From the NCBI GenBank assembly GCA_046290465.1, contig JBKAGP010000001.1:3008001-3072000 (forward strand): a DNA stretch of 64,000 nt. Reading direction: 5' to 3'. This document shows positions 2,307 to 32,288 of this stretch, in pieces. The number at the start of each line of letters is the position of its first letter. The first letter of the stretch is position 1. This DNA is from Planctomycetota bacterium. Lineage in GTDB: Bacteria > Planctomycetota > UBA1135 > UBA2386. The notes below the pieces were generated by a model. The model did no database searches and had not been told where the DNA came from. It was given only the letters and a program-made list of their open reading frames with translations. Position numbers and translations under genes: made by a program.

Positions 2307-2589
2307 CGAAGTAGCCGCGCGGCGGAGTTCCACGCTCAGTTGCCCCTGGGCCTTGCCTCACCGCAACCGCGGCGTGCCAGAGGTGGGCGAACAAGGGAAC
2401 CTCCATGGAGCGACCCACGCCGTCTCGTGTGCCAGTTTAGTGCCGACAATTCGCCCCGCGCATGCCCTCAGGTGTCCCCATCCTCATCACAAGTCGGTTC
2501 ATCTTGGTGATCGCAGGTCGTGCTATTGTCTTGACTTGACCGCGTCCGACCGCGATCGCCCTCACCTGCCCCCGGACCGTCAGACGCGC

Positions 2590-2637
2590 TTCCCAAGCTG
2601 AATGTCGTCGGTTCGATCCCGATCACCCGCTCCATTC
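2590..2637 (+). repeat. Displaced 3' fragment of tRNA-Gly(CCC); att-site direct repeat, copy 1
   Basis: TTCCCAA (anticodon loop), GCTGA, variable loop, T-arm GTCGG-TTCGATC-CCGAT, CACCCGC-TCCA. There is no 5' half (no GCGGGTG or D-arm) upstream. 46/48 identical to 32241-32288. Confidence 0.9.
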
Positions 2638-2653
2638 GCCACCCAACACCCAG

Positions 2654-3757
2654 CTACAGCCAGCTTGAACTCCCGAGCGGCGACACATCGTCGCGCACTG
2701 GTCGCATGACCTTGCCGACGAAGGGCGAGGTCATCGCCCGCAGCAGCGCGCTGTAGTTCGGCTCGAACCGGATCTCGGCTCCGACGGGTAGCAGTTCGCG
2801 CCCGGAGTGCACAATCAGATGGTCGCTGCTGGCACCCGAGATCTCGATTCCCCGTGGCGGATGCAGGCCGTCGGGATCCACGTCCTGCCGCCCGACCGCC
2901 AGGATCGCCTGCGGCACGAGCCCGCGATCCCCGGGAACCGGCACTTGCCCGAACGCTGCCTGCGCAGTCACGCCGGCCGGCCGCGACGACTTGATCTTCG
3001 ACTCGATAACTTCGGCGACCAGCACGATCGCGTCGGTATGGAGTCCCTGGATCGGCCGCCGATCCAATGGGTCTCGCCCCAGCAGGATGGCTTCGCCAAG
3101 ACGGAGGTCGTTGATCCTGCCGCAGTCCGCGCCTCCGAGCGCCCACCGGAGGTTCGCGGAGTTGCCACCGGAGACGATGCCGATCGTCAGCCCGAACGTC
3201 GCCTCGATCGAGTCCGCCAGTGCGGAGAGTCTGCCCATATTCTCCGAGTCTGGGATCACACCATATCGACATGCCAGATTCGCACCGAGACCCTCGAACG
3301 TGATCGAGGGCAGGCGCAGCGTCTCGCCGACCATGCGCTCTAGATCCGCAGGCATGATTCCCTCACGGAGGTCGCCGAGTTCGACCATCAACACGACCGC
3401 GTGCTGCTTGCCGGAAGCTTCCGCCGCCGCCGAGAGCTGCGTGATCACTTCGAGTTCGGTGTTGAAGCTCGAGTCTGCGCACGCGACCACTCGAGCCGCC
3501 TGGCTCATCATCGGCGATCGAATCAGGGTGAGCGACGCCGGCGCCTTGCTGCTGCGAAGCGCCTCGATGTTCTCGATCCTCGAGTCCCCCAACGAGCGAA
3601 CACCGGCACGCGTGAAGGCGTCGGCGATCGCCGGAGAACCGAGCATCGCCTTCGTAACACCGGTAATCGAGACCCCGCGCGTGCCGAGGGAGTGGACCAG
3701 GGCGCGCGCATTCTCGTGAATCTTGTCTAGGTCGATCTCGACGCGCGGCGCGCTCAC
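2654..3757 (-). CDS. Alanine/ornithine racemase-family PLP enzyme (Orr/YhfX-like)
   Basis: 'IDLDKI..NA', 'GVTKA' (PLP Lys), 'GDSRIENI', 'MVELGDLREGI', 'GANLAC', 'SGGNS', 'GASSDHL'; GTGA overlap with the upstream DUF1611 gene. Confidence 0.85.
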   Translation of the reverse strand: MSAPRVEIDLDKIHENARALVHSLGTRGVSITGVTKAMLGSPAIADAFTRAGVRSLGDSRIENIEALRSSKAPASLTLIRSPMMSQAARVVACADSSFNTELEVITQLSAAAEASGKQHAVVLMVELGDLREGIMPADLERMVGETLRLPSITFEGLGANLACRYGVIPDSENMGRLSALADSIEATFGLTIGIVSGGNSANLRWALGGADCGRINDLRLGEAILLGRDPLDRRPIQGLHTDAIVLVAEVIESKIKSSRPAGVTAQAAFGQVPVPGDRGLVPQAILAVGRQDVDPDGLHPPRGIEISGASSDHLIVHSGRELLPVGAEIRFEPNYSALLRAMTSPFVGKVMRPVRDDVSPLGSSSWL

Positions 3758-4953
3758 GACGTTTGGAGCGTGCGCTTGCAGACAAGCTGAGGGAACGCAG
3801 TGAAGACCATCCCGGTGAGCCTGTCGGCGGGCCCGGTCAGCGGATCGGTCACGGCGATCTCCAATTCGGTGGCGTAGCTGGCAACTGCGAGCTGCACCTC
3901 GGCGTCGGTCATGTTCTCGTGGTTGATGGTGAGTCCAATCACCTTCGTCTTGGCGAACATCTCGATGAGGCGGATTTCGTCGGCAGGACTCGGCATCGGC
4001 ATGCCTTCGAAGTCACATCGGTGTGACCGAGCCGGTGCATGCTGCAGGATGACGCCATCGGGGTGGCAGCCACGCAAGATGAGACTCGACGTCGAGAACG
4101 CTGGATGGCTCAGCGATCCCTGCCCCTCGATGACGATCACGTCCGGTTGCTCCTTCTCGAAGGCTTCCAGAATGGTCGCTTCGAGCTCTCCGGAGCAGAA
4201 TTGCGAAGGCACTGCGTCCAGCGCGACACCGTAGCGGGCCCCCTGGATCAACCCGGTCTGCCCCGTGCCCACCAGCACCGCGTTCAGCCCCAACTCGTTG
4301 AGTTCCTTCGTCAGTATGGTCGCCGTCGTTCGCTTGCCGATTGCGCAGTCGGTGCCGAGCACCGCGATGCGGGGGCACGTGACCTCGGCGATGCGACCGG
4401 TGAACAACCGCAGCTCCCGTTTCGAGCGGGGCTTCCTGATGTCGAGAATGCGCACGCCGTGCGCTGCGCTCGCCGCCAGGAACTCGGCGTCTTCGCTCAG
4501 GAACTCGTGCAGGCCGTTGACGACGTGCATGCCCAGGGCCATCGCGCTCAAGACGACGCCTCGCTCCTTCTTGCTCATCATGCCACTCGCCGGTGCCATG
4601 CCGAAGATGAAGGAGTCCGGCACGAACTCGGCGCTGGACAGCGCATGCTCCAGGTCGCGACAGATCGGGATCGCCTTGTGCTTTTCCCCGAGGGCGACAC
4701 CGGCGTCTTGTCCGGCAAGCGCGCTGTCGATCACCGAGAGGATCCTGTAGCGCTCCGAATGGCGGACCAGCCCGTTGGCGGTCTTGCCATCGATGGCCCC
4801 GAAGTTCCCCTCGCAGTACACGACTGCGGTAGTGGTGTCGACATCGTCGATGGCGGCCGGCGTCATCATCGCCAGGGCCATTTCGCCAGGGTCCATCAGG
4901 GCGGGCGGCGAAAGCGGATTCCGGGACGGGACCGGTCGCGTGGGGTCAGACAT
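3754..4953 (-). CDS. DUF1611 domain protein (DgcN-like, P-loop)
   Basis: 'GKTANGLVR', 'GLHEFL', 'GTDCAIGKRTT', 'TGQTG', 'IEGQGSLSHP'; ATG 4953 with GAGGAG RBS. Confidence 0.85.
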   Translation of the reverse strand: MSDPTRPVPSRNPLSPPALMDPGEMALAMMTPAAIDDVDTTTAVVYCEGNFGAIDGKTANGLVRHSERYRILSVIDSALAGQDAGVALGEKHKAIPICRDLEHALSSAEFVPDSFIFGMAPASGMMSKKERGVVLSAMALGMHVVNGLHEFLSEDAEFLAASAAHGVRILDIRKPRSKRELRLFTGRIAEVTCPRIAVLGTDCAIGKRTTATILTKELNELGLNAVLVGTGQTGLIQGARYGVALDAVPSQFCSGELEATILEAFEKEQPDVIVIEGQGSLSHPAFSTSSLILRGCHPDGVILQHAPARSHRCDFEGMPMPSPADEIRLIEMFAKTKVIGLTINHENMTDAEVQLAVASYATELEIAVTDPLTGPADRLTGMVFTAFPQLVCKRTLQTS

Positions 4954-5678
4954 GCGTACTCCTCGAGCGAGGCTCAGAAGAGGCGACGCGGTCACGACAG
5001 CCCGGATTGGCCGGTCGACGACGCAATCCCCGCCAAGCAACCCACCAACTCTACCGCCGATGCGAGCCAGGTGTTGCCGCGATCCCTGGCCGCCCCAGAT
5101 TTCATCTGATCTTGCGCTGCTTGGCCGGGTTGAACCCGGCGTCTCGACTGCAGCGGGCGCGGCACGCTTCCTCGGCTACGACTGCAGTCGAAGGTCGAGC
5201 GGCGGCGTCGGCTTGTGGTGTGAGGCCTCGACACGGGCGGAGATTCGGCTCCGCGTCGGGTCGAGAGTCTGGGCTTCGTCGAAGGGCATCGTGAATTCGC
5301 TGCCGTGCCGTGCCCACGGTCGCACGCCAACCCTCGGATCGGAAGCTCGCTGGAGAGTGGTGGGGCACTTCGTCGAGCGCGTCGGCCGCGGCCTTTCCCG
5401 AATTCACGATGCGCTCATGCCGGCCCCCTACAATGCCGGAGATTGGGACATCTCCAGCCTCTCAGAATCCTGGGGAAAGGACTGTACGCGGGGATGCCAG
5501 ACGCAACACGCCTCGCCTTCGGCACGTGGTGGCTAGGCCTGAGCGCGTCTCCGCAATCGGCCCCACGGGTCGGTCGGACTGCTCGGCGCCTTGCCTGCGA
5601 TCCGCTTGCTCTCACCCTCTCGGCTCCAACTCGAATCCTCGCTCACTGCGAACACCACCCCGTCAGCCGTCCCATAAC

Positions 5679-6404
5679 ATGGCCTTGAGACTCGATCCGA
5701 GTTGGAGCTCCGATGGAGCATCGACCACACTCCTGCAAGCGGGCGGTCTAGCGGCCGGGCCCGTGCACGAGGCGCCCTCCAACGAACCACGCCCGTCCCA
5801 ACAGGGCCGCGCCGCAATTCTCAAGCGGCTGCTCGACATCGCCGGCTCGGCGACGGCACTCACGCTCTTGTTGCCGGTCTTCGTCCTGTGCGCAGTCGCC
5901 GTGAAGACCAGTAGTCGTGGTTCGGTGTTCTTCCGGCAGATGCGAGTCGGCCAGGATGGCAAGCAGTTCCCCTGTTTCAAGTTTCGCACCATGCACCCGG
6001 GCGCGCACGCTCACCTCGAAGACCTGCGGGGCTCGAACATCCAGGACGGCCCGGCCTTCAAGATCCGGCGCGACCCACGCATCACGCGCGTCGGCTGCAT
6101 CCTGCGCAAGTTCAGCCTCGACGAGCTGCCGCAGTTCCTCAACGTGCTGTTGGGCCACATGAGCATCGTCGGTCCACGGCCGGCCATCCCCGCCGAGGTC
6201 GCCAAGTACACGCATTGGCAAAGCCGCCGCATCTCGGTGAAGCCGGGGATCACCTGCATCTGGCAGATCTATGGCCGCAACCGCGTCTCGTTCGATCGCT
6301 GGGTGGCCATGGACCTCTACTACATCGACAACTGGTCGTTGCTGCTCGATCTCCAGCTGATCGTGCGGACCGTCGGGGCTGTTGTTCGAGGCAACGGCAT
6401 GTGA
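5679..6404 (+). CDS. Bacterial sugar transferase (polyprenyl-phosphate phosphoglycosyltransferase catalytic domain)
   Basis: 'KRLLDI', '[18 protein letters not shown]', '[34 protein letters not shown]', 'KPGIT', 'DLYYI.NWSLLLD'. Start uncertain. Confidence 0.9.
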
Positions 6405-6592
6405 TCCGCGACACAGAGGCACGGCTACCGGCCGCCGCGCGGTTGCGACGAGCTGTCGGATCGATCGGCGTACGTGCTCGGACCTGCCGAGCGCGCATGC
6501 CGACGAGCGTTCGGGTCGCGCCGCCCCGAACGACCCTGGCTCGCGCACTCGCGCCGAACGTGCCTCGACCGACCCGGAGGGGCTGAGACCAG

Positions 6593-6695
6593 GTGGAGAT
6601 CTTCTGGTTCGTCCTTCTCGCCATGCACGGCGTGGTGACCCTCACGGCATGGCTCGACATCCTGCTGCACTACCGACGCTCGACCGCAGCGGTGG
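6593..6695 (+). pseudogene. cls: Cardiolipin synthase, 5' fragment (cut by IS21)
   Basis: GTG 6593 gives MEIFWFVLLAMHGVVTLTAWLDILLHYRRSTAAV. This joins in frame to AWLFSVATLPLLG after removing the IS and one GGTGG copy. Confidence 0.85.
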
Positions 6696-6820
6696 TGTCA
6701 CAGACCGCCCTATGAGAGCCACTCCGGTTCGCCCAAGCGGAGCCACCGCCAGTTCGGCCAAACGGAGCCAGGCCAGTTCGGCAGAACGGAGCCACCCTGG
6801 TTCGGCCAAGCGGAGCCACC
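6696..6820 (+). repeat. IS21 left end with five tandem GAGCCA-core repeats (~24-25 bp period)
   Basis: GAGCCA(C) cores recur near 6717, 6739, 6763, 6788 and 6812, separated by GTTCG(G/C)C-containing spacers. Multiple end repeats are characteristic of IS21 elements. Confidence 0.85.
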
Positions 6821-6913
6821 TGTGACGGGTTGAGCCGGAAGCGAGTCTGGAACTGGGTGAGCCCCCTGCCACCCGGGATCTTCGAGGAATCACTTACCCC
6901 CTCGAGGAACCAG

Positions 6914-8572
6914 ATGGGCAGGAGGCTCAGCATGCATCGTCTACAAGATCTCGTCCGACTCCACCGCGAAGGCGTCCCCGGCCGCACGGCGGCCCGCCTT
7001 CTGAAGATGGGGCGCAACACGATCGCCCGCTACACGAAGGCGCTGTCGGCGGCCGGCCTGCTGAGCGGCGACCCGAGAGACCTACCAGCCATCGAGGAGC
7101 TTCGCGCCGCGGTCGACGAACACGCGCCGCCGAGCACGCCGCCGCAGCAGAAGTCATCGATCGAACGATGGCTGCCGATCGTCGATGCAAAGTCCGACGA
7201 AGGCGTGCCGCCGACGGCGATCTTCGACTTCCTTCGGCTCGAGCACTCGGACTTCGCGGGCAGCCTGTCGGCGATCAAGCGCCGCTGCGCGGCCCTGCGC
7301 CGCGAACGCGGCGTGCAGCCAGGCGAGGTGACGATGCCCGTCGAGACGGCGGTCGGCGACGTCGCGCAAGTCGACTTCGGCTACGTCGGCAAGCTCTACG
7401 ACCCCGAGTCGGGCAAGGAAAAGAAGGCGTGGGTCTTCGTGATGACGCTCGGCCACAGCCGGCACATGGTCGCGCGCCTCGCCTTTGACCAGAAGGTCGA
7501 GACGTGGCTGCGCTTGCACATCGAGTGCTTCGAAGAACTCGGCGGCGTGCCGAAGACGATCGTGCCCGACAACCTGAAGGCGGCGGTCGTCCGCGCTGCC
7601 TTCGGCGTCGACGACGAGGTCACGCTCAACCGCAGCTACCGCGAGCTCGCGCGCCACTACGGCTTCGTCGTCGACCCGACGCCGCCACGCAGCCCGGAGA
7701 AGAAGGGCAAGGTCGAGTCGTCGGTGCGCTACGTGAAGTCCAGCTACTTCAAAGCGCACGCGCCCGAAGACGTCCGCGACGCGCGCGTCGGCATGCAGCG
7801 ATGGCTGATCGACATCGCCGGCCAACGACGTCACGGCACGACGGACCAGCGACCTGCCGACGTCTTCGCCCAGCGCGAGAAAGACGCGCTGCTGCCGCTG
7901 CCGCGTGAGCGCATGCAACTGGTCGCATGGCACCGCGCCAAGGTGCATCGCGACTGCCACGTCGTGTGCCGCGGCGAGTTCTACTCGGCGCCCTGGAACC
8001 TCGTCGGGGAGCACGTAGAGCTGCGTTTGACGCGTTTCGCGGTCACGCTCTACCACGACGACAAGCACGTCTGCACGCACGATCGCGTGTCGCGCGGCAA
8101 GCGTGCGACGATCGAATCGCACCTGCCCGACCAGCGGTCCGCGCTGCGGCACCGAAGCCGCGATCACTGGCAGTCCCTGGCCTACGAGATCGGCAAGCCC
8201 GTCGGCGACTACGTGGCGGCGATCTTCGATTCGGACGACGTGCTCCACAAGCTGCGCCAGGTCCAGGCGGTCGTCACGCACTTGCAGCGATTCCCCGTCG
8301 AGCGCGCCAACGCGGCGTGCATCCGGGCCATGCACTACGGCAACCAGTCCTACGCCGGGATCAAAGACATCCTCCGGCGCGGCCTCGACCTGATCCCGAT
8401 CCCCGGCGATGGCGATCGTCTTGCCAGCCACTGGTCGAACAAGCCGCGCTTCTCCCGTGTCCCATCAAGAGCCACCGATGCCCACGATCCAAGACCTGAC
8501 CAGCGTGCTGAAGAAGCTCCGACTCTCTGGCGTCCTCGAGACGATGGAACTCCGCGAGCGGCAAGCGAGTGA
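6914..8572 (+). CDS. istA: IS21 transposase IstA
   Basis: N-terminal HTH; 'AQVDFG', 'GGVPKTIVPDNLKAAV', 'KGKVESSVRYVK' DDE motifs; ATG 6914 with GAGGA RBS. Confidence 0.95.
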   Translation: MGRRLSMHRLQDLVRLHREGVPGRTAARLLKMGRNTIARYTKALSAAGLLSGDPRDLPAIEELRAAVDEHAPPSTPPQQKSSIERWLPIVDAKSDEGVPPTAIFDFLRLEHSDFAGSLSAIKRRCAALRRERGVQPGEVTMPVETAVGDVAQVDFGYVGKLYDPESGKEKKAWVFVMTLGHSRHMVARLAFDQKVETWLRLHIECFEELGGVPKTIVPDNLKAAVVRAAFGVDDEVTLNRSYRELARHYGFVVDPTPPRSPEKKGKVESSVRYVKSSYFKAHAPEDVRDARVGMQRWLIDIAGQRRHGTTDQRPADVFAQREKDALLPLPRERMQLVAWHRAKVHRDCHVVCRGEFYSAPWNLVGEHVELRLTRFAVTLYHDDKHVCTHDRVSRGKRATIESHLPDQRSALRHRSRDHWQSLAYEIGKPVGDYVAAIFDSDDVLHKLRQVQAVVTHLQRFPVERANAACIRAMHYGNQSYAGIKDILRRGLDLIPIPGDGDRLASHWSNKPRFSRVPSRATDAHDPRPDQRAEEAPTLWRPRDDGTPRAASE

Positions 8573-9212
8573 CGACAACCTGAGCAACCGCGACTTCCTG
8601 TTTCGCGTGCTCAACGACGAGGTCGAGCGGCGCGAGGCCAAGCAGCTTCACCTGCGCCTTCGCCGCGCCGCCTTCGACTGCCAGCGAACGATCGAAGACT
8701 TCGACTTCGCCTACAACCCGCAGATCCCCAAGGCCAAGATCGTGGACCTGGCGACGTGCCATTTCGTCGAGCGACACGAGAACGTGCTGCTCGTCGGCCC
8801 GACCGGCGTCGGCAAGTCGCACCTCGCGCAGGCGCTCGGTCACCGCGCGTGTCGCGCTGGCTACTCGGTGCTCTACGTCGCCGCGCACGAGATGCTGACC
8901 AAGCTGCGCGCGTCGCGAGCCGACGGCAGCTACGACCGATGCCTCGCCAAGTTTGCGAGCCCCGACCTGCTGATCATCGACGATCTCGGGCTGCGACCGT
9001 TGGAGAACGACGAGCCCATCGACCTCTACGAGGTCATCCGGCAACGCTACGAGCGCGGCGCGATGATCGTCACGAGCAACCGTGCGCTCGAGGAATGGCC
9101 GCCGCTCTTCGTCGATGAGCTGCTCGCCAGCGCGGCGATGGACCGCGTGCAGCACCATGCCCACGTCGTCGTCATCGATGGGCGGTCTTTCCGCCAACCG
9201 CGGAGCGCGTAG
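8478..9212 (+). CDS. istB: IS21 helper AAA+ ATPase IstB
   Basis: 'LKKLRLSG', Walker A 'GPTGVGKSHLA', Walker B 'LLIIDDLG', 'IVTSN', 'DRVQHH', 'GRSFR'. Confidence 0.95.
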   Translation: MPTIQDLTSVLKKLRLSGVLETMELRERQASDDNLSNRDFLFRVLNDEVERREAKQLHLRLRRAAFDCQRTIEDFDFAYNPQIPKAKIVDLATCHFVERHENVLLVGPTGVGKSHLAQALGHRACRAGYSVLYVAAHEMLTKLRASRADGSYDRCLAKFASPDLLIIDDLGLRPLENDEPIDLYEVIRQRYERGAMIVTSNRALEEWPPLFVDELLASAAMDRVQHHAHVVVIDGRSFRQPRSA

Positions 9213-9367
9213 TGGCTCCGTTTGGCCGAACTGGGCGCGATTCCTGCCGAACGCGATCAGGCTTCTGTGCCAATCCCGAAACGTCGCCTGTGCCAGTCCG
9301 AATCCGGCTTCGAGAGGTGGCTCCGAATGGCCGAACTGGGGTGGCTCCGATGAGGCGGCCCTTGACA
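9212..9367 (-). repeat. IS21 right end with inverted GGAGCCAC repeats
   Basis: GTGGCTCCG at about 9212, 9317 and 9341. The reverse complement of the end, TGTCAAGGGCCGCCTCATCGGAGCCACC, matches the left end. Confidence 0.85.
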
Positions 9368-9368
9368 G

Positions 9369-10703
9369 GTGGCGTGGTTGTTCAGCGTGGCGACGCTGCC
9401 GCTGCTCGGTGTCCTCGTCTACCTGGCCTTCGGTGTCTACCGCGGTCCCCATCGCATCCGCCGGCTACGGCAACGCGCGAGCATCGTGCGCGCCACTCGC
9501 AACCGTCGTGAAGGCCGGAGCGAGACGGCCTACCGGCGAGATTTCGCCCACTCGGGTTTCGCGACGCTGATGGCCAAGACGTGCACCTTCCCGCTTACCT
9601 CGGCCAACACGATCAAGGTGTTCGACAGCGACACCGAGGCTCTCGCGCGGCAATTGGAGTGCATCGCCGACGCCGAACGCGAGGTCGTGCTCTTGACCTA
9701 CATCCTCGTCACGGGCCAGATCCAGCGATCGCTGTTCGCGGCGCTCGCCACGGCCGCGCGACGCGGGGTCGCCGTTCGCCTGCTCGTCGACGGGTTCGGG
9801 TCCTATCGCCTCACCAGGCGCAGCATCCGCGAGCTCGAGACCAGTGGCGTCGAGACGCGGTTCTTCCAGCAACCGAATCCGCTGCGCGGACGGTTCCAGA
9901 TCAACTTCCGCAACCACCGCAAGCTGCTCGCGGTCGATGGCCAGGTGGCCTTCACCGGCGGCCGCAACTGGAGCGATAAGTACTACTCCAGCGCGCCCGG
10001 CCCGACGTTCCGCGACACCAGCTTCGAGGTGCGCGGGAGTGCACTGATCGACATGCGCCGGGTCTTCTTCGAGGACTGGACACTCGCGGGCGGTCGGCCC
10101 GAGCCACCTCAGGTCGAAGAACTCCCCGGGCTCGGCACCGTCGATGGCGGCGACGTGGAGATCCGAGTCCTGCCCGCCGGACTGGACGAGCCCATCGACG
10201 ACATCGCGACCGTGCTCTGCGCGGCGTTTCGGAGCGCGCGCCACAGCATCCTGATCGTGACTCCCTACTTCGTGCCGGCCCCACGCTCCTACGACGCCCT
10301 GCGGCTCGCTGCACTAAGCGGCGTCGACGTGCGCATCCTGGCGCCACGGCATAGCGGCCGACTGGCGATCGACTTGGCGGCCGCGAGTTGCTTCCGGCGT
10401 CTTCTTCAGGTCGGCGTCAGGATCTGGCTCCGACCCGCTCCGTTTCTGCACAGCAAGGCGATCGTGGTCGACGAAGCTTGGGCGACCGTGGGGAGCGTCA
10501 ACTTCGACGCGCGCTCGATGGAGCTGAACTTCGAACTCAACCTGGAGGTCGTCGATCGCGCGTTCGCGAGCAGGTTGCGCGCGCACTTCGACCAGGACTT
10601 CGAGGTGTCGACCGAACTCGATGCAGGCGAGTTCGCGAGGCCTCCGACTATCACGAGGCGGCTCTTGGAGAACATCGCGTCGATTTTCGCCCCGATCCTG
10701 TGA
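9369..10703 (+). pseudogene. cls: Cardiolipin synthase, 3' part (both PLD domains)
   Basis: Two HKD motifs, 'RNHRKLLAVDG' and 'FLHSKAIVVDE', plus 'TPYFVP' and 'GSVNFDARSMELNFE'. The reconstructed protein is ~477 aa. Confidence 0.9.
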
Positions 10704-10833
10704 ACGCCACACCCCCCGTTCGTCCGAGCGCGGCAAGTCGGTGGCAACCAAGCGTCTGCGCCGCGGGACGCGGGCCTTCCAGGCACGTGAGTCCCACGCC
10801 GGGCCGCTTCGCCGAGGCGCGGTCCAGCTCGTC

Positions 10834-12210
10834 CTATCGTGGTACAGGCTCCTGGCCGCCGGGCGCGTTGCACGAGGCAACACCTCTCGAGCCCCCGACC
10901 GGCCACGCCATCACGGTGATGCCGATGACCGCCGAGACGGCCGATGCGACGAGCACGCCGAGTTTCGCTCCGTCGATCGTCGCAGCGTCGAATGCCAGGT
11001 CGGCGATGAACAGCGCCATCGTGAACCCGATGCCGGCGAGGAAGCCGGCTCCGACCAGCATGCGCCAGCCGATGCCAGCCGGCCGCCTGGCCATGCCAAC
11101 GCGAACCGCCAACCAAGCAAAGCTGACCACGCCGAGAGGTTTGCCGACCGCGAAGCCGAGCACGATCGCGAGCGCGACCGGGTTCGCCGGATCGGCTCCG
11201 GACAGCGGGATGCCAGCGTTGGCCAGAGCGAACAGCGGCATGACCAGGACACTGACCCACGGGTGCAGCGTCAGCTCCAGGCGCTCGACCGGCGACATCG
11301 TCTCCCGAACGGCGGCTCCGGCGAGCACCCATGACGCGCGGGCAGTGTCGGCATCAACACGCGCGTCCCCGTTCGGGACGGCCTCCATCCTTCCCAGGAT
11401 CCTGCGCAGACGGCTCTGGCTCACCCACGCACGCGCCGGCGTGAGCAGTCCGAGGCAGACGCCGGTGATCGTGGCGTGCAGACCGGAGGCGTCGATGGCC
11501 ACCCAACACGCACCCCCGACCAGCACGTAGACGGCCACGTTCCGGATGCCGACGACCGCCAGCACACGGACACAGACGAGCCCGCCGGCACCGATCGCGA
11601 GCGCCCCCCAGGAGATCGGCCCGCTGTACCCAATCGCCACCACGAGGATGGCGCCGATGTCGTCGACGATGGCCAACGACAGCAGGAACACGCGCAGCCG
11701 TTGCGGGACGCGCCGCCCCAGCAACGCAAGGCACCCGATCACGAACGCGGTGTCGGTCGCCATCACCGCGCCCCAACCGTGCGCGCCCACCTCGCCGCCC
11801 TGCAGCAGCAAGTACAGCCCCGCCGGGACGAGCATGCCGCCGACCGCCGCGGCGATCGAGAAGGCCGCCTGCCGGGGACTGCGCAGCTCCCCGAGCACCA
11901 GCTCGCGCTTGAGCTCGAGGGCGACGACGAAGAAGAACAGCGTCATCAACCCGTCGCCAATCCACTCACGCACGGCGCGCGTGAAGTCGAGATCCCCGAA
12001 CCGCACACCCAGCGGCAGCTCCCAGAACCTCTCGTACGCGTGAGCCCACGGCGAGTTGGCGGCGGCCAGCGCAATCAGCGTTGCCAACAGCAGCAACATG
12101 CCGCCGAGTGACTCGATGTGCAGGAAACGCGACACCGACCGCGTGAATGGGTCGGCGAACCCTCGGGGCAGCCGGGAACTCGCCGTCGTCGCTCGCGGCA
12201 GATGGCTCAT
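10834..12210 (-). CDS. nhaA: Na+/H+ antiporter NhaA
   Basis: 'ANSPW', '[18 protein letters not shown]', 'GGMLVPA', 'ATDTAF', 'LAIVDDIGA', 'PLFALANAG', '[10 protein letters not shown]'; ATG 12210 overlaps the cgs stop (ATGA). Confidence 0.95.
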
Positions 12211-22794: not shown

Positions 22795-23428
22795 CTAGCT
22801 ACGGACACCGGCTCTCCGCTCGCCCGAGCGCCTCTTGGGCCTGAGTTGGCCACGAGGAGTCCACTTCGTCGATCGCCCACCGAGCCCCGATCGGTCTGGC
22901 CCCTGACGTGCTCCAAGGTTGGGCGATGTCGAGACGCAAGAGACCGCCAGCTCCCGCGGATGCCGCTCCGGGCCGCAAAGAGCAGACGAAGCGACGGCCT
23001 CTCACCTCCTGTCAGCTCCGCGACCCGTGCAGGAGCGAACACCTCCATTCCAGAAGCATGCCTACCATGCCCAGATCCTGGCCCCAGATCGTCATCGCAC
23101 TCGAACAGGTGGCCGCTTCAGCCGCCGTCGTGCGACCCGGCTTGTACCGACGCGTCCTGCAACGCCTGTTCACCGAGGGCCTGCTGCCAGCAGGTCACGT
23201 CATGGTGATGCCTAATGACGACGTCGAACGCGGCCATGCGGCGCCCCCCGCCGCAGCACCCGAAGATGCGCTACCGTAGTCGCCCGTTCGCCCGACCGGG
23301 ACCGGCTCCGTTCAAGGCGTGTCGTCCATGGCCGCCCCGTCCTTCGGCGCGACGACCTGTCTCGGGGGCCGTGGCCGTTCGGCCCCGCGACTCTGATCTG
23401 CGATGGGAAGCGAGCCGCCTGGCTGCCC

Positions 23429-23723
23429 GAGACCGGTCGACTCGTCGGGCTCCTGAGCGAACGCGACCTCGTTCGGCGAGTGCTCATCGAGGACTTCGAC
23501 ATCGACGCCACACGCGTGTCCGAGGTCATGACCAGACAACTCGTCATCGGACGCCCGAATGACCGAAGCAGCGACGCCGCGCGGCTGATGCACCTCCATC
23601 ACATCAGGCACCTGCCCCGTCGTCGACGAGCACAACGGCTTCATCGGCATGGTTTCTATACGCGATCTTCTTCGCAGCAAGATCCAAGATCTTCACGACT
23701 ACATGAGGCAGTCCGGCGAATGA
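23429..23723 (+). pseudogene. CBS-domain gene remnant (5'-truncated, frameshifted)
   Basis: ETGRLVGLLSERDLVRRVL...MHLHHIRHLP, then an extra C in the run at 23615-23618, then VVDEHNGFIGMVSIRDLL...DYMRQSGE*. Clearly paralogous to 24741-25157. Confidence 0.8.
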
Positions 23724-23873
23724 CGATGACCGCCGCGATCGCGGCAGGTCAGGTCCGAGCCTGACTCCGACCCAGAAGACCGGGTGCTTCGCGGCGACCG
23801 CCACGGACACGCCGTCAACAGGGACTCGTCCGCCGATCGCCGGATCGGGGCGTCGCCCGCGACCTCATCCGGC

Positions 23874-24152
23874 TCAGGACTGGCCCACCGAACTCGCATC
23901 GTCGTCGGCCCGGAGGTGCCGCAGTGCGAGCGCCATCTGTGACTCATGCAACTTCTCGGTTGGCACGACAGCGTTCACGATGTTGACCTGCTGTGATCGT
24001 GCGTAGCCCGCCTCGAGCGACGCCGGGTACGATTCGATGAGCCTGTCGCTTGCGTGGAGCGCGCCGAGCAGGTCACGCGTCTTGTAGTGAATCGAGTGGG
24101 CCTTCGAGTAATGCTCACGGGCATCGTCGACGCGGTCGTGGTTGTCGTTCAT
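23874..24152 (-). CDS. Hypothetical small helical (TPR-like) protein, 92 aa
   Basis: ATG with GAGGTG RBS; 'HYSKAHSIHYKTRDLLGAL...YPASLEAGYARSQ' resembles a single helical hairpin repeat. Confidence 0.55.
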   Translation of the reverse strand: MNDNHDRVDDAREHYSKAHSIHYKTRDLLGALHASDRLIESYPASLEAGYARSQQVNIVNAVVPTEKLHESQMALALRHLRADDDASSVGQS

Positions 24153-24740
24153 GTTGTCACCTCGTATGGAGAAGCGGGCTGGGGGCGAGGAGCGGCCAGC
24201 ACCGTCAGCACGCGCACATCGCTCGCGCCGATCGGGTCCCGGCAACGCCCGACCGCTGAGATCACCACGTCGCTGAAGTAGACCAGCTCGCGCGCAGTTG
24301 TCTCGCCGTCGGCCAACCGGCACGTTTGCAGTAGAGAGTTCTCGACCAGATCCGACAGGTGTCGGACCTCGATGCGAGGTAGTGCTAACCACCCCGTACC
24401 GTGCGCGCGAGCGCCTGCTCACCTCATTCCCGACCGCCCTCGCCGTCGACCTCGCGCCAACTCGAAGCCGCGCTGCCCAACTCCCAAGCCATCGCTTCGT
24501 CGAGAATTTACTTTGTGCAGCGGCTGGATCCCTCCGTCGCCGCGACCCATGTGAGTAGATCCGAGCCTGGATGCATGCGGCCCGAAGAGGCCGCCCCTGC
24601 GAGCATCCGGCGCTGCGGGGATCCGGCAGCGTGCCTTCCATGGACACGGCGGCCGAGGAGTCGCGACGCTCATCTCGCGCGCACCGCGATACACGGTTGC
24701 TCCGATGTGACCCTCGGCGTCCACATGGAATCCGGAGCAA

Positions 24741-25157
24741 GTGACCCTACTCAAAGAACTGATCACGAGGCTGCCAAAGTTCGTATCGGTGGCGCCGACG
24801 GACTCGGTGCGTACTGCCGCGAAAGTCATGACCGACACCAACAGGAACGCGGTGGTCATCATCGATGGCCAGGACATGGTCGGGATCGTCACTGAGCGAG
24901 ACCTAGTAAGGCGGGTGCTCCTCGGGGGCCGGGACGTGGACCAGGTGACGGCCGCAGAGATCATGACCGAGGATCTCGTGGTCGCCCGACAAGACTCGAG
25001 TGTCGGGGCGGCGATCGTGCTGATGCGACGACACCACATCCAGCATGTTCCGGTGGTCGGCCACCACGGCACGCTGCTGGCCGTGCTCGCGCTCCGGGAC
25101 CTGATCAGTGAGGAAGTGCACGAGATGCGGGACTACCTGGCCCTCGGAGACGGCTGA
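24741..25157 (+). CDS. CBS domain-containing protein
   Basis: 'SVAPTDSVRTAAKVM', 'VGIVTERDLVRRV', 'IMT', 'HIQHVPVV'; GGAG RBS. Confidence 0.85.
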   Translation: MTLLKELITRLPKFVSVAPTDSVRTAAKVMTDTNRNAVVIIDGQDMVGIVTERDLVRRVLLGGRDVDQVTAAEIMTEDLVVARQDSSVGAAIVLMRRHHIQHVPVVGHHGTLLAVLALRDLISEEVHEMRDYLALGDG

Positions 25158-25312
25158 TTCCCCTCGGTCGCGTGCGTACGTCGCTTGCGCGGAGCGACAT
25201 CCGCGCACCCGTGACTCCGGCGGCGCTAACGGCTTCATGCGGGCATCACGTGCCTTTGGCATCCTCCCCCTCGGCTGCAGGCTTGCTGTCACGACAACCA
25301 AGCGAACCCCCG

Positions 25313-25474
25313 ATGCTCCACACGACGCTACACATCCTCTCCCTCACGCTGGTCACCGGACTCGTTGCGTTCTACGGGGCGAGCCCCAACATCGCACTGC
25401 CGGGGCAACTGTTCCTCAGTGGCCTGCTGCTGCTCGGCCTCGATCTGCTGGACAGACGACGGAGGCGGGCATGA
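25313..25474 (+). CDS. Small two-helix membrane protein (53 aa, loosely DUF1328-like)
   Basis: MLHTTLHILSLTLVTGLVAFYG...LFLSGLLLLGLDLLDRRRRRA: two hydrophobic stretches and a basic tail; ATGA overlap with the next ORF. Confidence 0.5.
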   Translation: MLHTTLHILSLTLVTGLVAFYGASPNIALPGQLFLSGLLLLGLDLLDRRRRRA

Positions 25475-25758
25475 GCATCGATCCCACCGGTGGCGGCCAG
25501 CCGTGCAGCGGCGAGAACACCGCGCCGGCATGGCCGGACGCCTGCATTCGCCGGCAGGCCATCGCCATACGCGATGCGCTGCGCCACCGCCGACAGGCCC
25601 GCGACCTCTGCCTCCAGCAGCGTCTCTACGACGAGCACTGTCTGTTCGGTCCGGCGCGGGAAGCTCGTGATGGCGTGATGCAGTCGCTGCGCGCTACGAG
25701 CCTCTGCTGGCGGCTCGCACTCGGGCTCGATGCCAGCGGCGGTGATCGTGGCTCGTAG
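25471..25758 (+). CDS. Hypothetical protein
   Basis: GGAGG RBS and ATGA coupling to the upstream small ORF; no recognisable motif. Confidence 0.35.
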   Translation: MSIDPTGGGQPCSGENTAPAWPDACIRRQAIAIRDALRHRRQARDLCLQQRLYDEHCLFGPAREARDGVMQSLRATSLCWRLALGLDASGGDRGS

Positions 25759-25942
25759 CCCATCGGCGCCCGTACCACCGGCTGCCGCTCGAGGCCGGAC
25801 TTCCGGTCACGAACGGCGGCCCTCGTCGCGGCCAGGATCTGCGTCGGCGTCGTCGAGCGTCGAGGCGGTTCCGTCGCGGATCACGCGGTCGCCGGGCAGC
25901 CCACGGTCACCAAACGCGAGAGTCGTAGGTCGGGAGGAGACG

Positions 25943-26644
25943 ATGCGCATTCTGATCATCGAAGACAACGAGAAGCTGTCCAGCAGCATCAAGGTCTGCC
26001 TCGAACAGCACGGCTACTGCATCAACGTCGCGAAGGACGTGGCGGAAGGTGAGGAGATCGCCTGCATCGAACACCACGACGCGATCATCGTCGACGTCAA
26101 GCTCCCCGACGGCGACGGAGTCGATCTCTGCCGGCGGCTGCGTGAGCAGAAGGTCAGCTCCCCGATCCTGATCCTGTCGGTGCTCGCAACGACCGCCGAC
26201 AAAGTGCGCGGTCTCGACGCAGGCGCCGATGACTACCTCACCAAGCCGTTCCAGACCGAAGAGCTGCTCGCGCGCCTACGCAGTCTGCTGCGGCGTTCGC
26301 AGGCGATCCCGGGCGGCATCCTGCAGTCCGGCGATCTGCAGCTCAACCTGATCGAGCGCAAGGTCTACATCGCCGACGTGGAAGTGCGCATGTCCAACAA
26401 GGAGATCGCGCTGCTGGAATACCTCATGCGCAACCCGCGAAAGCTGCTGTCGAGGACGATGATCAGCGAAAGCGTCTGGGACATGAACTACGAGCCGAGC
26501 AGCAACGTGATCGACGTCTACGTCTCGAGCCTACGCCGGAAGATCGACACCGGCGCCGTGCAGCGCATCGAGACGGTCATCGGCAGCGGCTACCGGTTCC
26601 TGGATTGTCCCGAACCCCGTGGCTCGGTGGCGCCCGTGTCGTGA
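25943..26644 (+). CDS. OmpR/PhoB-family response regulator
   Basis: 'MRILIIEDN', 'IIVDVKLPDGDG', 'GADDYLTKPF', winged helix 'NVIDVYVSSLRRKID...IETVIGSGY'; GGAGGAG RBS. Confidence 0.95.
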   Translation: MRILIIEDNEKLSSSIKVCLEQHGYCINVAKDVAEGEEIACIEHHDAIIVDVKLPDGDGVDLCRRLREQKVSSPILILSVLATTADKVRGLDAGADDYLTKPFQTEELLARLRSLLRRSQAIPGGILQSGDLQLNLIERKVYIADVEVRMSNKEIALLEYLMRNPRKLLSRTMISESVWDMNYEPSSNVIDVYVSSLRRKIDTGAVQRIETVIGSGYRFLDCPEPRGSVAPVS

Positions 26645-27615
26645 TCGCCCGCCGGGGGCCGTTCTTCGTGGCAGTCGGGCTGATAATGGCCGTGGCGATC
26701 GGCGTGCTCGCGCACGCGTCGTGGCTGCCAGCCGGACTGCTGCTGCTCGCGGTGATGCTGCTCGTGTTCGGCCGACGACGTGCCGAGGCGCTACGCGAGC
26801 TGGCGCTGACGGAGAACCGTCGGTTGTCGGCGCGCATCGACGAGTTCGCGATCATGCAGGGCCGATTCGTCGGCAACATCGCGCACGAGATCAAGACGCC
26901 GCTGGCGGTCGTACTGGGCGAAGCCGAGGTGCTGCAGCTACGCGGGGGCGATGCGATCGCAGTGCAGGCCATCGCGGAGAGCATCGTCGCCGATGTCCGC
27001 CACCTGGCCGATCTCGTCGACAGCTTCCTGCAGCTGGCGCACCCCCTCGCCCAGGACGAGACGGTCGAGCACGGCCCCGTCTACCTCAGCGACGTGGTGC
27101 TCGCGGCGGTCGGACGCTGTAGTGGCATGAGCACCAAGCACAAGGTGCGCCTGGTGACGCTGCTGGCGCCGCCGGACAGCGGCGATCCCTCCGCCGAAGT
27201 GCTGGGTGACGCGGTGTTGCTGGAGGTGATGGTGGAGAACCTGCTGCGCAACGCGGTGCGCTTCTCCTCGGCGGGCGCGCAGGTGACGGTGCGCACGACC
27301 GCCGATCGACGCTCTGTCGGCCTGATGGTCCAGGACCACGGCGTCGGCATTCCCATCGAACGACAGCAGGCAGTGTTCGACTGGTTCTTCGACGGCCCAC
27401 TACGCCCATCCGGCGCGTCGGGCATTGGCTTCGGCCTCTCCATCACCAAGCGCATCGTCGACCATCACGGTGGCACGATCGTCCTGCGCGACACGCCGGG
27501 CGGTGGCTGCGAATTCGAGATCACGCTGGCGCGGTGGTGGCCCGAGGCTGATGAGCCAGCGGGCGAAGGGTGCGCGCCGCCGGTGGAACCGACCGCTACG
27601 CCGGCGTCGTGGTGA
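26641..27615 (+). CDS. Membrane sensor histidine kinase
   Basis: Two TM helices, H-box 'NIAHEIKTPL', N-box 'ENLLRNAVRF', 'DHGVGI', 'GIGFGLSI'; GTGA overlap with the regulator. Confidence 0.92.
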   Translation: MIARRGPFFVAVGLIMAVAIGVLAHASWLPAGLLLLAVMLLVFGRRRAEALRELALTENRRLSARIDEFAIMQGRFVGNIAHEIKTPLAVVLGEAEVLQLRGGDAIAVQAIAESIVADVRHLADLVDSFLQLAHPLAQDETVEHGPVYLSDVVLAAVGRCSGMSTKHKVRLVTLLAPPDSGDPSAEVLGDAVLLEVMVENLLRNAVRFSSAGAQVTVRTTADRRSVGLMVQDHGVGIPIERQQAVFDWFFDGPLRPSGASGIGFGLSITKRIVDHHGGTIVLRDTPGGGCEFEITLARWWPEADEPAGEGCAPPVEPTATPASW

Positions 27616-28346
27616 CGAGGCGACCGTCGCCCCCGTCCGACTTGCCTGCAATGCTCCGCGTTCGTCGGTGCCGTCAGGCGTCGTGCGAGACGGTGACTGC
27701 CGAGCGCCCTCCTCGGCGAAGAGGCGGTTCGGGCCCAGCATCAACGACCGCGAACGTCTCGATGGCCTGAGAGCGCAAGCTCCGCCCCACGACTTTGTGG
27801 CCCGCCAGCGCGAGCGCATCCGCGTCAGGTCCTGTTCAGCGCCCGCGTCGCGAAGGTGGCATCTGCTTCGTAGAGGCTCTGCGCGCGCAACTGCGAGCAG
27901 TAGAACAACGAGCACGACATCAGGCATGCGAGCGGAAGGAGGAGATCGAGGGATGACGGCAGGAAAGATGCTCGAAGTTGCATGGCGGTGGCTCCTGCCA
28001 GACGAGGCAGGGGGTGCGCCCAGGACGGCATCCATGCCGCGCCGCTTCGGTAGCACGATATCCGGCGGGAAGGAACGACAAGCTGCGGTCCAGCTCATCC
28101 GAAACCCACCGCCTGGCGCCCGCCGGCCGGTCGCGGCCCGAATCAGCAACCGCAGTGAACGCCCAGGCCCCACCACAATGCCCTGTTCGCAGCCTGACCC
28201 GTTCGCAACGGTCGCGTAGTTCGCGATTGGCACCGAATGGGTTCACCCTGGCGGCACGCGCGCTCGCATCGCCTGCGCCAGCGCCTCGCCACTCGGTGGC
28301 GCTCCGTCCGCACCCCTCGACAACCGCGGCGCTATGCTGGCTCGAA

Positions 28347-28636
28347 TGCTTGGTGGCGAACCGCGCGACTCGGAAGTGACACATCCTGGTTGGAACCGGA
28401 GCAACTGGCTGGCCGAGAAGATCCTCAGCGGCGAGCTGCCGGCGGCGAAGAACGAGGTCCTGCGGAGATGTGATCGGGTCTTCGCCGAAGACGGCGACCT
28501 CGACGAGCACGTGCACGAGCTCGCGGCCGTCCTGGGTGGCGCCGATGCCTGCTCGACCAGCCGCCTCGCTGAGGTGCGGGCCTACCTGGAGCGCCTGCTG
28601 CACGTCCGCGAGATGTGGGCGTCGGAGCGCACCTGA
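28347..28636 (+). CDS. Hypothetical protein (start 28334 or the next in-frame ATG)
   Basis: GC3-rich helical ORF of ~96-100 aa; TATGCT sits just before the second ATG. Start coordinate approximate. Confidence 0.45.
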
Positions 28637-28637
28637 A

Positions 28638-28687
28638 GATCCGGAGCGCGGGTAGCAGGGGCGCCTCGGCGCCTACCGCTCCGGATC
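28638..28687. terminator. Stem-loop between convergent genes
   Basis: GATCCGGAGCG ... CGCTCCGGATC inverted repeat with an inner GGCGCC-TC-GGCGCC pair; no U-tract. Confidence 0.4.
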
Positions 28688-28812
28688 GTCGACCTCGATG
28701 ATGATGGCGACGATCGTGCCGCACGCGCCGTCATCTTCGACAGCGAGATCATCGCCGCCGCCGACGTGCAGCAAGCGAACGAAGCCGGCAGCGATACCGG
28801 CAGGACCAACCG

Positions 28813-30066
<1,254 letters not shown>

Positions 30067-30156
30067 GGAGTTGGTGCGGCGGGAGCGCCTGGGGCGGTCC
30101 GCGCCTGATCGGATGTCAAGAGCTGCCAGGCCGAGCCCGGACGGCCCGCGGACGCG

Positions 30157-31158
30157 TCATGCGTAATCGCGCTGCCGTGCGACCCTGAGCTGGCGAAAGC
30201 CAACGAGCTTGCCGCTCGCTTCGTCCCAGAGCTTCAGGCTGAAGGTCCGGAGGGAGCGCAGGAGCGTCATCGGCGTCACCTGCTCGAAGTGAGCGTCGGA
30301 CTCGTGACAGGCCTGCAGGTTGTAGTTGGGGATGCGGGCGCTGAGGTGGTGGATGTGGTGGTAGCCGATGTTGCCGGTGAACCACTGCAGCACCCTCGGC
30401 AGCGCGAGGAACGCGCTGCCCTTCAGCGCGGCGTCGGAGTAGCTCCAGTCCTCACGCCGTGCCCAGTAGGCGCCGTCGAACTGGTGCTGCGAATAGAACA
30501 GCCAGACGCCGATGCCGCCCGCGACGGCGAGGATCGTCAGCTGCAGGATCAGGTACGGCAGGAAGCCGAAGATCGCGCTCATGCCGATCGCCATCGCCAG
30601 CAGGCACAGGTTCGTCCACCAGACCGACCGTCGCTCGCGAGCGCCGGCCCGCGAGCTCGGCAGGCGCTGCTCCAGCAGGAACATCACCAGCGGCGCGATG
30701 CCGAGCAGCACGATCGGGTTGCGAGCCACCCGATACGCGGCGCGCTTCCACCACGAGGACTGCTGGTACTCGCGGACCGTCATCGTCCACATGTCCCCGA
30801 CACCTCGGCGGTCGAGGTTGCCGGTGGTCCCGTGGTGGATGGCGTGCTCCCAGCGCCAGTGCGCGTACGGGGTGAAGGTCAGCACGCCGGTGACGAACCC
30901 CCACCGGTCGTTCGCGGTCCGCGACGCGAAGAACGACGCGTGCCCGCAGTCGTGGAAGATGATGAACACGCGCACGAGCACGGCGCCGGCCAGGATGGCG
31001 AGCGGGATGGTCAGCCACCACGACACGGTCAGCGCGAAGGCCATGGCGCACCACAGCGCGACGTAGGGGCCGACGGAGTTGACCAGCTGCCAGCTGGCTC
31101 GCGCGACGCTCGGTCGCTGGTACTCCGCGATCAGCGGCTTCCAGACTTCGGTCTTCAT
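30157..31158 (-). CDS. des: Membrane acyl-lipid fatty acid desaturase (Bacillus Des-like)
   Basis: Three His boxes, 'HDCGH', 'HAIHH' and 'HHIHH'; 'QHQF', 'IPNYNL', 'LKLWDE'. Confidence 0.93.
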   Translation of the reverse strand: MKTEVWKPLIAEYQRPSVARASWQLVNSVGPYVALWCAMAFALTVSWWLTIPLAILAGAVLVRVFIIFHDCGHASFFASRTANDRWGFVTGVLTFTPYAHWRWEHAIHHGTTGNLDRRGVGDMWTMTVREYQQSSWWKRAAYRVARNPIVLLGIAPLVMFLLEQRLPSSRAGARERRSVWWTNLCLLAMAIGMSAIFGFLPYLILQLTILAVAGGIGVWLFYSQHQFDGAYWARREDWSYSDAALKGSAFLALPRVLQWFTGNIGYHHIHHLSARIPNYNLQACHESDAHFEQVTPMTLLRSLRTFSLKLWDEASGKLVGFRQLRVARQRDYA

Positions 31159-31346
31159 ATGGCTCTGCCTTCTCGCACCTGGACGGCCGGCGCGGAGCGC
31201 GCGGCAGGGCCAGTCGCTCCCGCGCGGCCGCGGGCCACGACGGACCTCGGCCTGGTGCCTGCGGGAGCACCGACTGTGCCCATGGCCGCGGCGCGGCCCT
31301 GGGCTCGATCCACCGGCGAAGTCAGCGCGTCGCCCGGCGGCCTGGG

Positions 31347-31646
31347 TTACCAGCGACGATCGCGGTCGGGGCGGCCGCCGCCGCCGGAGCGGGGCTGGCG
31401 CGCCTGCGCCTCGTTGACGCGCAGGGTGCGGCCATCGAGTTCGGAACCGTCGAGCGCTTCGATGGCGGCGCGTGCGTCATCGGCCGACGCCATCTCGACG
31501 AAGGCGAAGCCGCGCGGCTGTCCGGTTTCCCGGTCGGTGATCACGGAGACACTCTGGACGCGGCGCGAATCGCGCTCGAACGCCTGGGTGATCGCGTCTT
31601 CGGTGGATTGGAAAGAGAGGTTGCCTACGTAGAGCTTGGTGCTCAT
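31347..31646 (-). CDS. RRM RNA-binding protein (Rbp-type, Gly/Arg tail)
   Basis: RNP2 'LYVGNL', RNP1 'RGFAFVEM', 'GRTLRVNEA'; AAGGA RBS. Confidence 0.95.
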   Translation of the reverse strand: MSTKLYVGNLSFQSTEDAITQAFERDSRRVQSVSVITDRETGQPRGFAFVEMASADDARAAIEALDGSELDGRTLRVNEAQARQPRSGGGGRPDRDRRW

Positions 31647-32240
31647 GGATTCGATCCTTGGGGTCGAGAGGTTGCGGAAGTCGAACTCGAGCGCCGTTGC
31701 CAACGTGTCAACGGGTACTCCGCACTGTGGCCGGGTGGGACCCGGCGTCTCGACAGCCCTTCTTCAGGACCGAACCGAGCGCGTCTGCCTGCCGAGGTGG
31801 CTGCAGACGCCGCATACGCACGCGAAATCGATGAGACTGCAAAGCGCGCGACGGGGATTGAGACTCCGCTCACACGCCGGACGCAACATAGGGCAGACTG
31901 CGGCCGTACGCTCTGGAATCTGAGAAAGATCCGCACTGGGCACCTGCCGATCGGGCAGAGACGGACCGCACGGCCATCACCTGGCCCGAGGACACGGAGG
32001 GTTGGCGCCGTGCGCAGCATCGCCTCTTCGGGCGAGCCCTTCGGTTGGCACCGAGTGCGGGATGGCCCACCACCTGCCTGTGCCAACTTGATGCCAGGAA
32101 TGCCCCCCGAACATGTCCTCAGGTGTCCGCATCGCGTTCACAAGTCGAGTCACGCGGTTCTTCCGAAGCCTCGTCAACATCCTCACTTGGCCGCGAATGA
32201 CCTGCGACGTCCGCATCTGCCCGCGTAGCACCCGCCCGAG

Positions 32241-32288
32241 TTCCCAAGCTGAGTGTCGTCGGTTCGATCCCGATCATCCGCTCCATTC
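32241..32288 (+). repeat. Displaced 3' fragment of tRNA-Gly(CCC); att-site direct repeat, copy 2
   Basis: TTCCCAAGCTGAGTGTCGTCGGTTCGATCCCGATCATCCGCTCCATTC; two mismatches versus copy 1; no tRNA 5' half upstream. Confidence 0.9.

Follow-up and report, generated by a model that had tools for sequence, protein, structure and literature searches.

How can a genomic island without an integrase keep a complete integrase attachment arm, and could that arm still be of use to a neighbor? The question is raised by a 64,000-nucleotide stretch of DNA (the window; positions 3,008,001 to 3,072,000 of contig JBKAGP010000001.1, assembly GCA_046290465.1) from a member of the Planctomycetota, whose genome, termed G000, is one contig (C1) of 6.59 Mb. 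We propose that two islands of the same family are stacked behind one tRNA-Gly(CCC) gene, namely E1, which carries a tyrosine integrase (Int), and E2, which is decayed, and that the right arms of both probably serve two roles, as binding sites for proteins and as the source of an acidic tail that Int would carry only when the element is a circle. We give this reading a probability of about 0.7. The boundaries of the islands, their gene content, the int frame that crosses the attachment (att) core and, within the arms, an acidic frame that stays open are direct observations (Table 1).

Two Islands of One Family Behind a Single tRNA Gene

The intact tRNA-Gly(CCC) gene, which the preliminary description of this DNA had implied, is found at G000:C1:2933119-2933193 (plus strand), 74.8 kb upstream of the window start and on the same strand as two tRNA-Gly 3' fragments in the window, where a tRNA gene search finds no tRNA gene and an Rfam scan gives 0 hits. 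The two fragments are identical at 46 of 48 positions and both begin at the 7-nt anticodon loop; the first is unchanged relative to the intact gene (50-nt repeat, 2588-2637), and the second carries two changes. As described before, the two 210-nt ends align without gaps, and the arms that precede the fragments share 100 of 162 positions, which is beyond chance since 100,000 random windows of the genome give a mean of 44.3 identities per 162 (standard deviation 5.6) and a maximum of 70. The similarity ends abruptly upstream of the first motif (2-9 identities per 20-nt block), and the five conserved blocks reported at offsets 0, 33, 59, 106, and 135 are present in both arms at those places. The earlier proposal of a tandem pair from one family of tyrosine integrase elements, inserted at the anticodon loop of tRNA-Gly, is supported; its description of the inner unit as lacking an integrase is correct as to the missing gene but not as to position, as that unit, E2, is distal to the tRNA gene and hence the outer one.

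E1 is 99.98% identical over 78 kb to a region in another genus (G096:C1:564827-643706, in a single-contig genome). The match stops exactly at window position 2637, the G096 copy holds a 1.4-kb insertion, and different units come after it there. The near-identical copy in another genus indicates that E1 is a recently mobile element, and a copper-resistance element passes here between genera almost unaltered in a little-studied lineage.

That E2 is host backbone, or a duplication created by assembly, is an explanation to which we give very little credence. It draws on the G+C content of E2 (0.681), which is near that of the genome (0.702; flanks, 0.70-0.71), on the several E2 genes that have paralogues elsewhere in G000, and on the empty site with G000's own downstream flank, which was not found among the loci examined. 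Yet E2 terminates in a family att arm followed by a tRNA fragment, one contig of run X1, which may be the source of this DNA, spans its right junction, and G096, G301, and other genomes carry different DNA behind the same tRNA gene.

The Integrase Frame Crosses the Attachment Core

The E1 integrase is of the lambda type. It matches PF00589 with 75.8 bits (cut-off 27.1), and within the catalytic set R-K-H-R-H-Y the residues R244, K271, H351, R354, and Y387 are invariant and H377 nearly so across 111 sequences. The best matches to its predicted fold are the Tn1549 and lambda integrases, with a model that is confident to about residue 400, residues 410-455 being of low confidence and outside the catalytic fold. 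The model shows an N-terminal domain of three strands and a helix that may bind the arms, and GTGCCA direct repeats are present on both E1 ends; the net charge of the protein is +25.

The int frame runs through the left arm and then antisense through the tRNA 3' half, and in the integrated state its stop codon starts 2 nt past the core. The att core therefore lies inside int and in frame, as in phage Mx8. The core is crossed in the same manner by all seven cluster representatives with at least 56% identity (P0002-P0008) and by G053, and Int has a different end in P0008, P0126, and G053, in which the tRNA 5' half has given way to other DNA. From the DNA alone, the integrated and excised C-termini differ: the former stops at 455 aa and the latter would continue for 40 codons in the right arm, so that the predicted circle form has 494 aa, which is the 455-aa form plus 39 acidic residues. 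Because excision would exchange the tRNA-derived stop for the acidic tail, in the way known from Mx8, Int would differ with the state of the element.

The acidic frame is widespread in the family. A collection of 43 distinct pattern matches included 22 without a tRNA-like 3' half, and from the 21 that remained we dropped an unrelated Streptomyces arm (L122), three intact tRNAs (L146, L151, L154), two near-duplicates (L106, L132), L098 (161 nt, treated separately), and initially also L118, so that 13 non-redundant arms remained, which are 52-90% identical to each other; L118 and the G238 arm with a damaged core were added later to give 15. In 12 of the 13 arms the Int frame past the core is open for 39 further codons and ends at one and the same TGA, and in the remaining arm it is 7 codons longer. 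Stops within 39 codons are found in none of the 13 in the Int frame compared with 3 and 12 of the 13 in the other two frames of the strand (column permutation, P = 0.00035; blocks of 2-5 columns, P = 0.0002-0.0026; eight representatives below 75% identity, P = 0.0017), and with the two additional arms one of 15 is closed (P = 0.0012). Aspartate and glutamate (D/E) account for 29% of the tail residues versus 9% after permutation and hydrophobic residues for 6% versus 19%, neither value being reached in 3000 permutations, and the net charge ranges from -4 to -12 across the arms. The layout recurs in sister elements at tRNA-Thr (G222) and tRNA-His (G288), whose tails are 34 and 25 residues long (D/E, 26% and 24%); this comparison covers two of four sister elements because the right attachment sites (attR) of those in G081 and G158 were not found.

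DNA Sites, Protein Tail, or Both

The arms are likely to bind recombination proteins, to judge from their predicted sites. YGNCC motifs are present at arm offsets 24, 35, and 45 and again at 109, 119, 129, and 139 in 10-13 of the 13 arms, and their spacing of 10-11 bp has the look of arm-type and excisionase sites. The interpretation of the five conserved blocks as integrase or accessory-factor sites holds in so far as they include arm-type repeats and helically phased motifs, but the exact blocks are kept in only 10, 6, 2, 6, and 3 of the 13 arms (in offset order), and some are thus specific to the G000 pair.

If the arms were conserved as DNA-binding sites only, then the acidic frame would be a by-product of pyrimidine-rich motifs read antisense and the tail a harmless run-on. 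We consider this improbable, although much of what weighs against our own reading is found here. The tail frame has a pN/pS (nonsynonymous to synonymous) ratio of 0.87 and is conserved equally across codon positions (P = 0.27), so that the amino acid sequence is barely constrained, while the DNA motifs of the arms are clearly conserved. L118 (G302) has lost its tail through a stop immediately after the core, with an open acidic frame behind that stop, and in most relatives at 42-53% identity the protein stops about 20 residues past the catalytic domain without any read-through, which shows that the tail is dispensable for catalysis. To these points, and to the missing empty site, must be added that the G053 tail has only 25 residues; that the permutation values are not fully independent, as the arms are related by descent; that none of 15 close database proteins (P0002-P0008, P0122-P0129) ends in an acidic tail; that neither an excised circle nor a transcript nor the long form of Int was observed, with run contigs that break at the 50-nt repeat; and that no E2 lies behind E1 in G096.

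Motifs that recur every 10-11 bp cycle through the three frames, however, and yet the D/E content of the Int frame drops to 2% and 5% in the other two, and 59% of its first codon positions are G. A mere run-on would tolerate stops, and 14 of the 15 arms contain none; the sister elements at tRNA-Thr and tRNA-His show this bias as well. The comparisons indicate that the constraint on the tail is on length and charge and not on sequence, and we favor arms that act both as DNA sites and as the source of the tail. One further idea was set aside, that of a C-terminal degron: Ala is the last residue in 28 of 105 short-ended relatives compared with 9% of G000 genes, but these relatives are kin to one another and the integrated Int has a C-terminal Ser, which leaves a hint only.

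E2 Is Probably a Relic and Not a Satellite

The preliminary description saw no recombinase between 2638 and 32240 other than that of the IS21 element, and all searches of this interval agree. A six-frame PF00589 search of the genome together with local tblastn and hidden Markov model searches finds no tyrosine recombinase or integrase remnant there, PF00239 finds no serine recombinase, and Pfam identifies istA and istB as the only mobility functions, and no relaxase, in 33 chosen open reading frames (ORFs) of E2. The family left-arm motif is absent from E2, occurring in this region only behind the intact tRNA gene and at the two right arms, and a stretch resembling an origin of transfer (oriT) common to E1 and E2 was not found above chance (best match 25 nt, E = 0.013). 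E2 therefore has a complete right att site and a left core with no arm motif, and the loss of its integration and transfer genes is a trait of cis-mobilizable elements (CIMEs). Hence E2 is likely a decayed, CIME-like island and the older resident of the site.

The same features bear on the proposal that E2 is a working satellite, excised and moved in trans by the integrase of E1 or by another one. In its favor, integrase-less units that end in a family arm are found in five places, which are E2 itself, G015 (23.4 kb), G096 (52 kb), a TARA unit (6 kb), and G238:C936 (5.5 kb, with a damaged core). Moreover, run X2 contains the E2 left end and right arm with E1 sequence absent at 1200-2587 (depth 5-7, with gaps), and has 30 nt of unmutated tRNA sequence behind the E2 arm, in contigs that are equally compatible with a circle or a lone integrated E2. 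A satellite would be expected to have both att arms plus an oriT or packaging signal, whereas E2 lacks the GTGCCA left-arm site, with a cargo gene that stops 16 nt from the repeat, and has neither a relaxase nor an E1-like oriT, an unrelated oriT being possible. The other integrase-less units carry unrelated cargo with no mobility gene in common, the right tRNA fragment of E2 has its two changes, and the left 4 kb of E2 has no near-identical copy in 90 family genomes, where the best of the long matches reaches 77% over 2.3 kb at a locus with no tRNA gene. Mobilization of E2 in trans thus finds no support here, and we hold a working satellite to be decidedly improbable.

Decay at a hotspot is a simpler account of the integrase-less units than a satellite class. 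An arm at the same distance from the core is found in G011 (twice), G009, G015, G036, G096, G238, G249, G301, G302, and three TARA junctions, and 1 nt closer in G053, in which int and the arm are 60 kb apart (only the two ends were examined). Complete family units with an integrase are those of G000/G096, G301, and G249. A DDE transposase interrupts one family left end about 100 nt in, and the integrase-less unit in G015 adjoins an intact tRNA in a genome with no family integrase (82% complete). As a candidate left-end signature, several integrase-less units begin with a short inverted repeat; E2 does not, and no satellite class was defined for this reason.

A Proposed Sequence of Events

We propose that E2 integrated first and then lost its left end along with its integrase gene, an order that fits run X2 with its E2 ends and no E1. 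E1, an IME-like element (see below), would later have integrated at the anticodon loop, in front of E2. The integrated Int would end on the tRNA-derived stop at 455 aa, and the excised form would be extended to 494 aa by a disordered tail whose net charge is about -8. If the tail is functional, there is close to an even chance that it favors re-integration of the circle through higher stability or activity of Int. The circle form may be more active or stable by analogy with the less active prophage form of Mx8 (PMC4701971), and a C-terminal proteolysis route, like that of phage BPs (PMC3694055), is conceivable.

In this scheme E2 could not exit alone. It might do so only within a 107-kb composite, in which the left end of E1 recombines with the right arm of E2 and the E1 Int gains the E2 tail, although we judge this somewhat short of an even chance. 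There is a third option besides the immobilized island and the satellite moved in trans that were considered previously, namely mobilization of E2 in cis by its neighbor E1. No composite transfer is on record because E1 in G096 lacks E2 behind it. More speculatively, and in our view unlikely, the right arms might be interchangeable modules that supply cargo and integrase tail together, with integrase-less units keeping the frame since a neighbor borrows the tail upon composite excision, so that one integrase could draw on a stock of disordered tails selected for charge and length that signal the circular state. Indirect support for an exit of E2 together with E1 comes from the comparison of G000 with G301, whose int genes are 89%, left arms 94%, and right arms 65% identical, as might be expected if right ends were exchanged, the alternative being faster evolution of the arm.

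Relation to Known Systems

Stacking itself is ordinary, and both att sites inside int and CIME accretion are already known. The attP site lies inside int in Mx8 (PMC4701971, PMC6070905, PMC4383910), where integration replaces 112 residues by 13 with lower activity (PMC4701971), and the same arrangement, termed rare in 2016 (PMC4701971), is known in Mx9, SSV1, and streptococcal rumA integrative and conjugative elements (ICEs). CIMEs are described as decayed units behind a newer element at the same site for which composite excision is possible, and which by definition keep attL and attR (PMC5704250). In BPs, attP lies in the repressor gene, integration removes a tag, and Rep and Int carry proteolysis tags (PMC3694055). 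The comparison also drew on PMC5861418 and bioRxiv 10.64898/2026.01.13.699239.

E1 resembles Mx8 (IntP in the phage and a shortened prophage form; also Mx9) in that a tyrosine integrase has attP within its own gene and its C-terminus is swapped on integration. It differs in being a mobilizable island rather than a phage, in that its integrated form loses only 39 residues and about 15 residues antisense to the tRNA are present in both states, in that its tail is kept in length and acidity and not in sequence, and in the spare tail on an integrase-less neighbor. Like the decayed members of tandem accretions among ICESt1/ICESt3 relatives, E2 has neither integration nor transfer genes and shares its site with a newer element in front of it, but in contrast to CIMEs it keeps both cores and the right arm with no recognizable left arm, and its mobilization in cis is only proposed. 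As in BPs integration-dependent immunity, a C-terminus changed by recombination would report the state of the element, with the difference that attP is in the repressor gene there and in int here.

An integrative and mobilizable element (IME) has its own integrase and relaxase and no mating-pair system (PMC5704250), and this is what E1 shows, with Int, an Xis-like helix-turn-helix protein, a TrwC relaxase, and a TrwB-type coupling protein, within the scope of a genome-wide search with the VirB4 profile PF03135, the only one so used, and Pfam on 74 E1 ORFs. We term E1 IME-like because the PF03135 search finds no VirB4 in G000; 45 of the 74 ORFs have no Pfam match, some being likely spurious frames, and a divergent mating-pair system could hide among them.

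We read the whole as an integrase switch of the Mx8 type, borne by an IME-like element that sits in front of a CIME-like relic with a spare tail of its own. A literature search that largely excluded subscription journals gave no paper on an acidic attP tail or on a tRNA-Gly element of planctomycetes. An att site inside int appears to be the rule in one planctomycete integrase clade and to recur at two further tRNA genes, and selection on the tail seems to act on its acidity and not on its sequence. It could offer a small directionality switch, 455 versus 494 aa, and could account for the full arm on an island that has no integrase.

Gene Content of the Islands and Their Surroundings

Table 1. 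Features of the tandem islands (window positions unless preceded by C1, which denotes positions in G000).
Feature	Position	Strand	Remarks
E1	C1:2933149-3010637		77.5 kb; right end is window 1..2637, remainder upstream of window
E1 left-arm GTGCCA repeat	C1:2933241-2933257		about 47 nt behind intact tRNA
Tyrosine integrase P0002, 455 aa	C1:2933144-2934511	-	converges on tRNA, antisense through tRNA 3' half
84-aa HTH_17 protein, likely excisionase (Xis-like)	C1:2934508-2934762	-	
TrwB-type coupling protein and TrwC relaxase (MOBF-type)	C1:2937956-2942786	-	
E1 right arm	2428..2589	+	GTGCCA direct repeats 2428-2444; YGNCC motifs near 2452, 2463, 2473, 2537, 2547, 2557, 2567 (family consensus offsets)
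Predicted Int tail of excised E1 circle	2468..2590	-	40 codons after core, net charge -8; stop 2468-2470 inside CCTCAGG block
tRNA-Gly 3' fragment, E1/E2 junction	2590..2637	+	identical to intact gene
E2	2590-32288		distal unit; cargo 2638..32078
Alanine racemase-like gene	2654-3757	-	stop 16 nt from repeat
IS21-family element (istA, istB)	6696..9367	+	99.4% identical copy elsewhere in genome
GH94/GT2 cyclic-glucan-synthase-like ORF, 2,882 aa	12207-20855	-	
Other E2 cargo			DUF1611, sugar transferase, cardiolipin synthase-like phospholipase D (PLD), NhaA, CBS proteins, DUF4142
Other E2 cargo, continued			two-component pair, DEAD-box helicase, desaturase, RRM protein
E2 right arm	32079..32240	+	layout of E1 arm, 62% identical; 86% identical to arm of integrase-less unit in G015
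Intact tail frame in E2 arm	32119..32241	-	40 codons, net charge -7; same stop position (32119-32121)
tRNA-Gly 3' fragment, E2 right junction	32241..32288	+	2 changes vs intact gene
SNF2 helicase region, downstream of E2	32289-35200		

Besides the genes in Table 1, E1 encodes a ribbon-helix-helix protein, ParA, RadC, a Hachiman pair, and copper/metal efflux cargo. A thioredoxin-like gene at its right end (window 1871-2300) appears frameshifted, with a Pfam match that ends at profile position 81 of 103. The 11 listed runs from samples other than S1/S2 cover 0.35-0.41 of window 1000-5000, which is about the size of the E1 part, and both of the two that were examined, X6 and X16, contain E1 sequence; the Logan contigs break at the repeat, and the depths in X1 (119-152) do not give copy numbers.

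The cargo of E2 looks like a set for osmotic and cold adaptation, as judged from the predicted glucan-synthase-like ORF, NhaA, PLD, DEAD-box helicase, desaturase, and RRM protein. The desaturase and RRM genes (window 30157-31646) have a paralogous pair about 44 kb downstream (G000:C1:3082938-3084730; DNA identity 74% and 69%). Further along the window, at 49746-50635, a pair of small genes stands out by its low codon adaptation from otherwise host-like surroundings; it includes an M78 peptidase domain of the IrrE/ImmA type.

The tRNA-Gly(CCC) core is also shared by other tyrosine-integrase families (G028:C3:41915-69490, G036:C12:313582-334630, G096:C1:541752-564826, G238:C308) that have different arm motifs and an integrase directed away from the tRNA, which makes the site a multi-family hotspot. 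Within the E1/E2 family, L096:4076-8272 (G249:C266) is a 4.2-kb mini-element with only the integrase and AbiEi/AbiEii genes, and the integrase-less unit in G015 (C9; L037:14480-20000 and L038:1-17900) carries nitrate reductase, NO-reductase-like, and hemerythrin genes, likely a denitrification cassette. Orphan partial arms (the first 35-66 nt) without a tRNA fragment are found at L052:6450-6505 (G036:C22) and at two places in L147. In L109:771-1326 (G196:C136) a tRNA-Gly 3' fragment is joined directly to an M14 peptidase gene homologous to window 43488-44399, representing either a secondary integration site or a chimeric contig.

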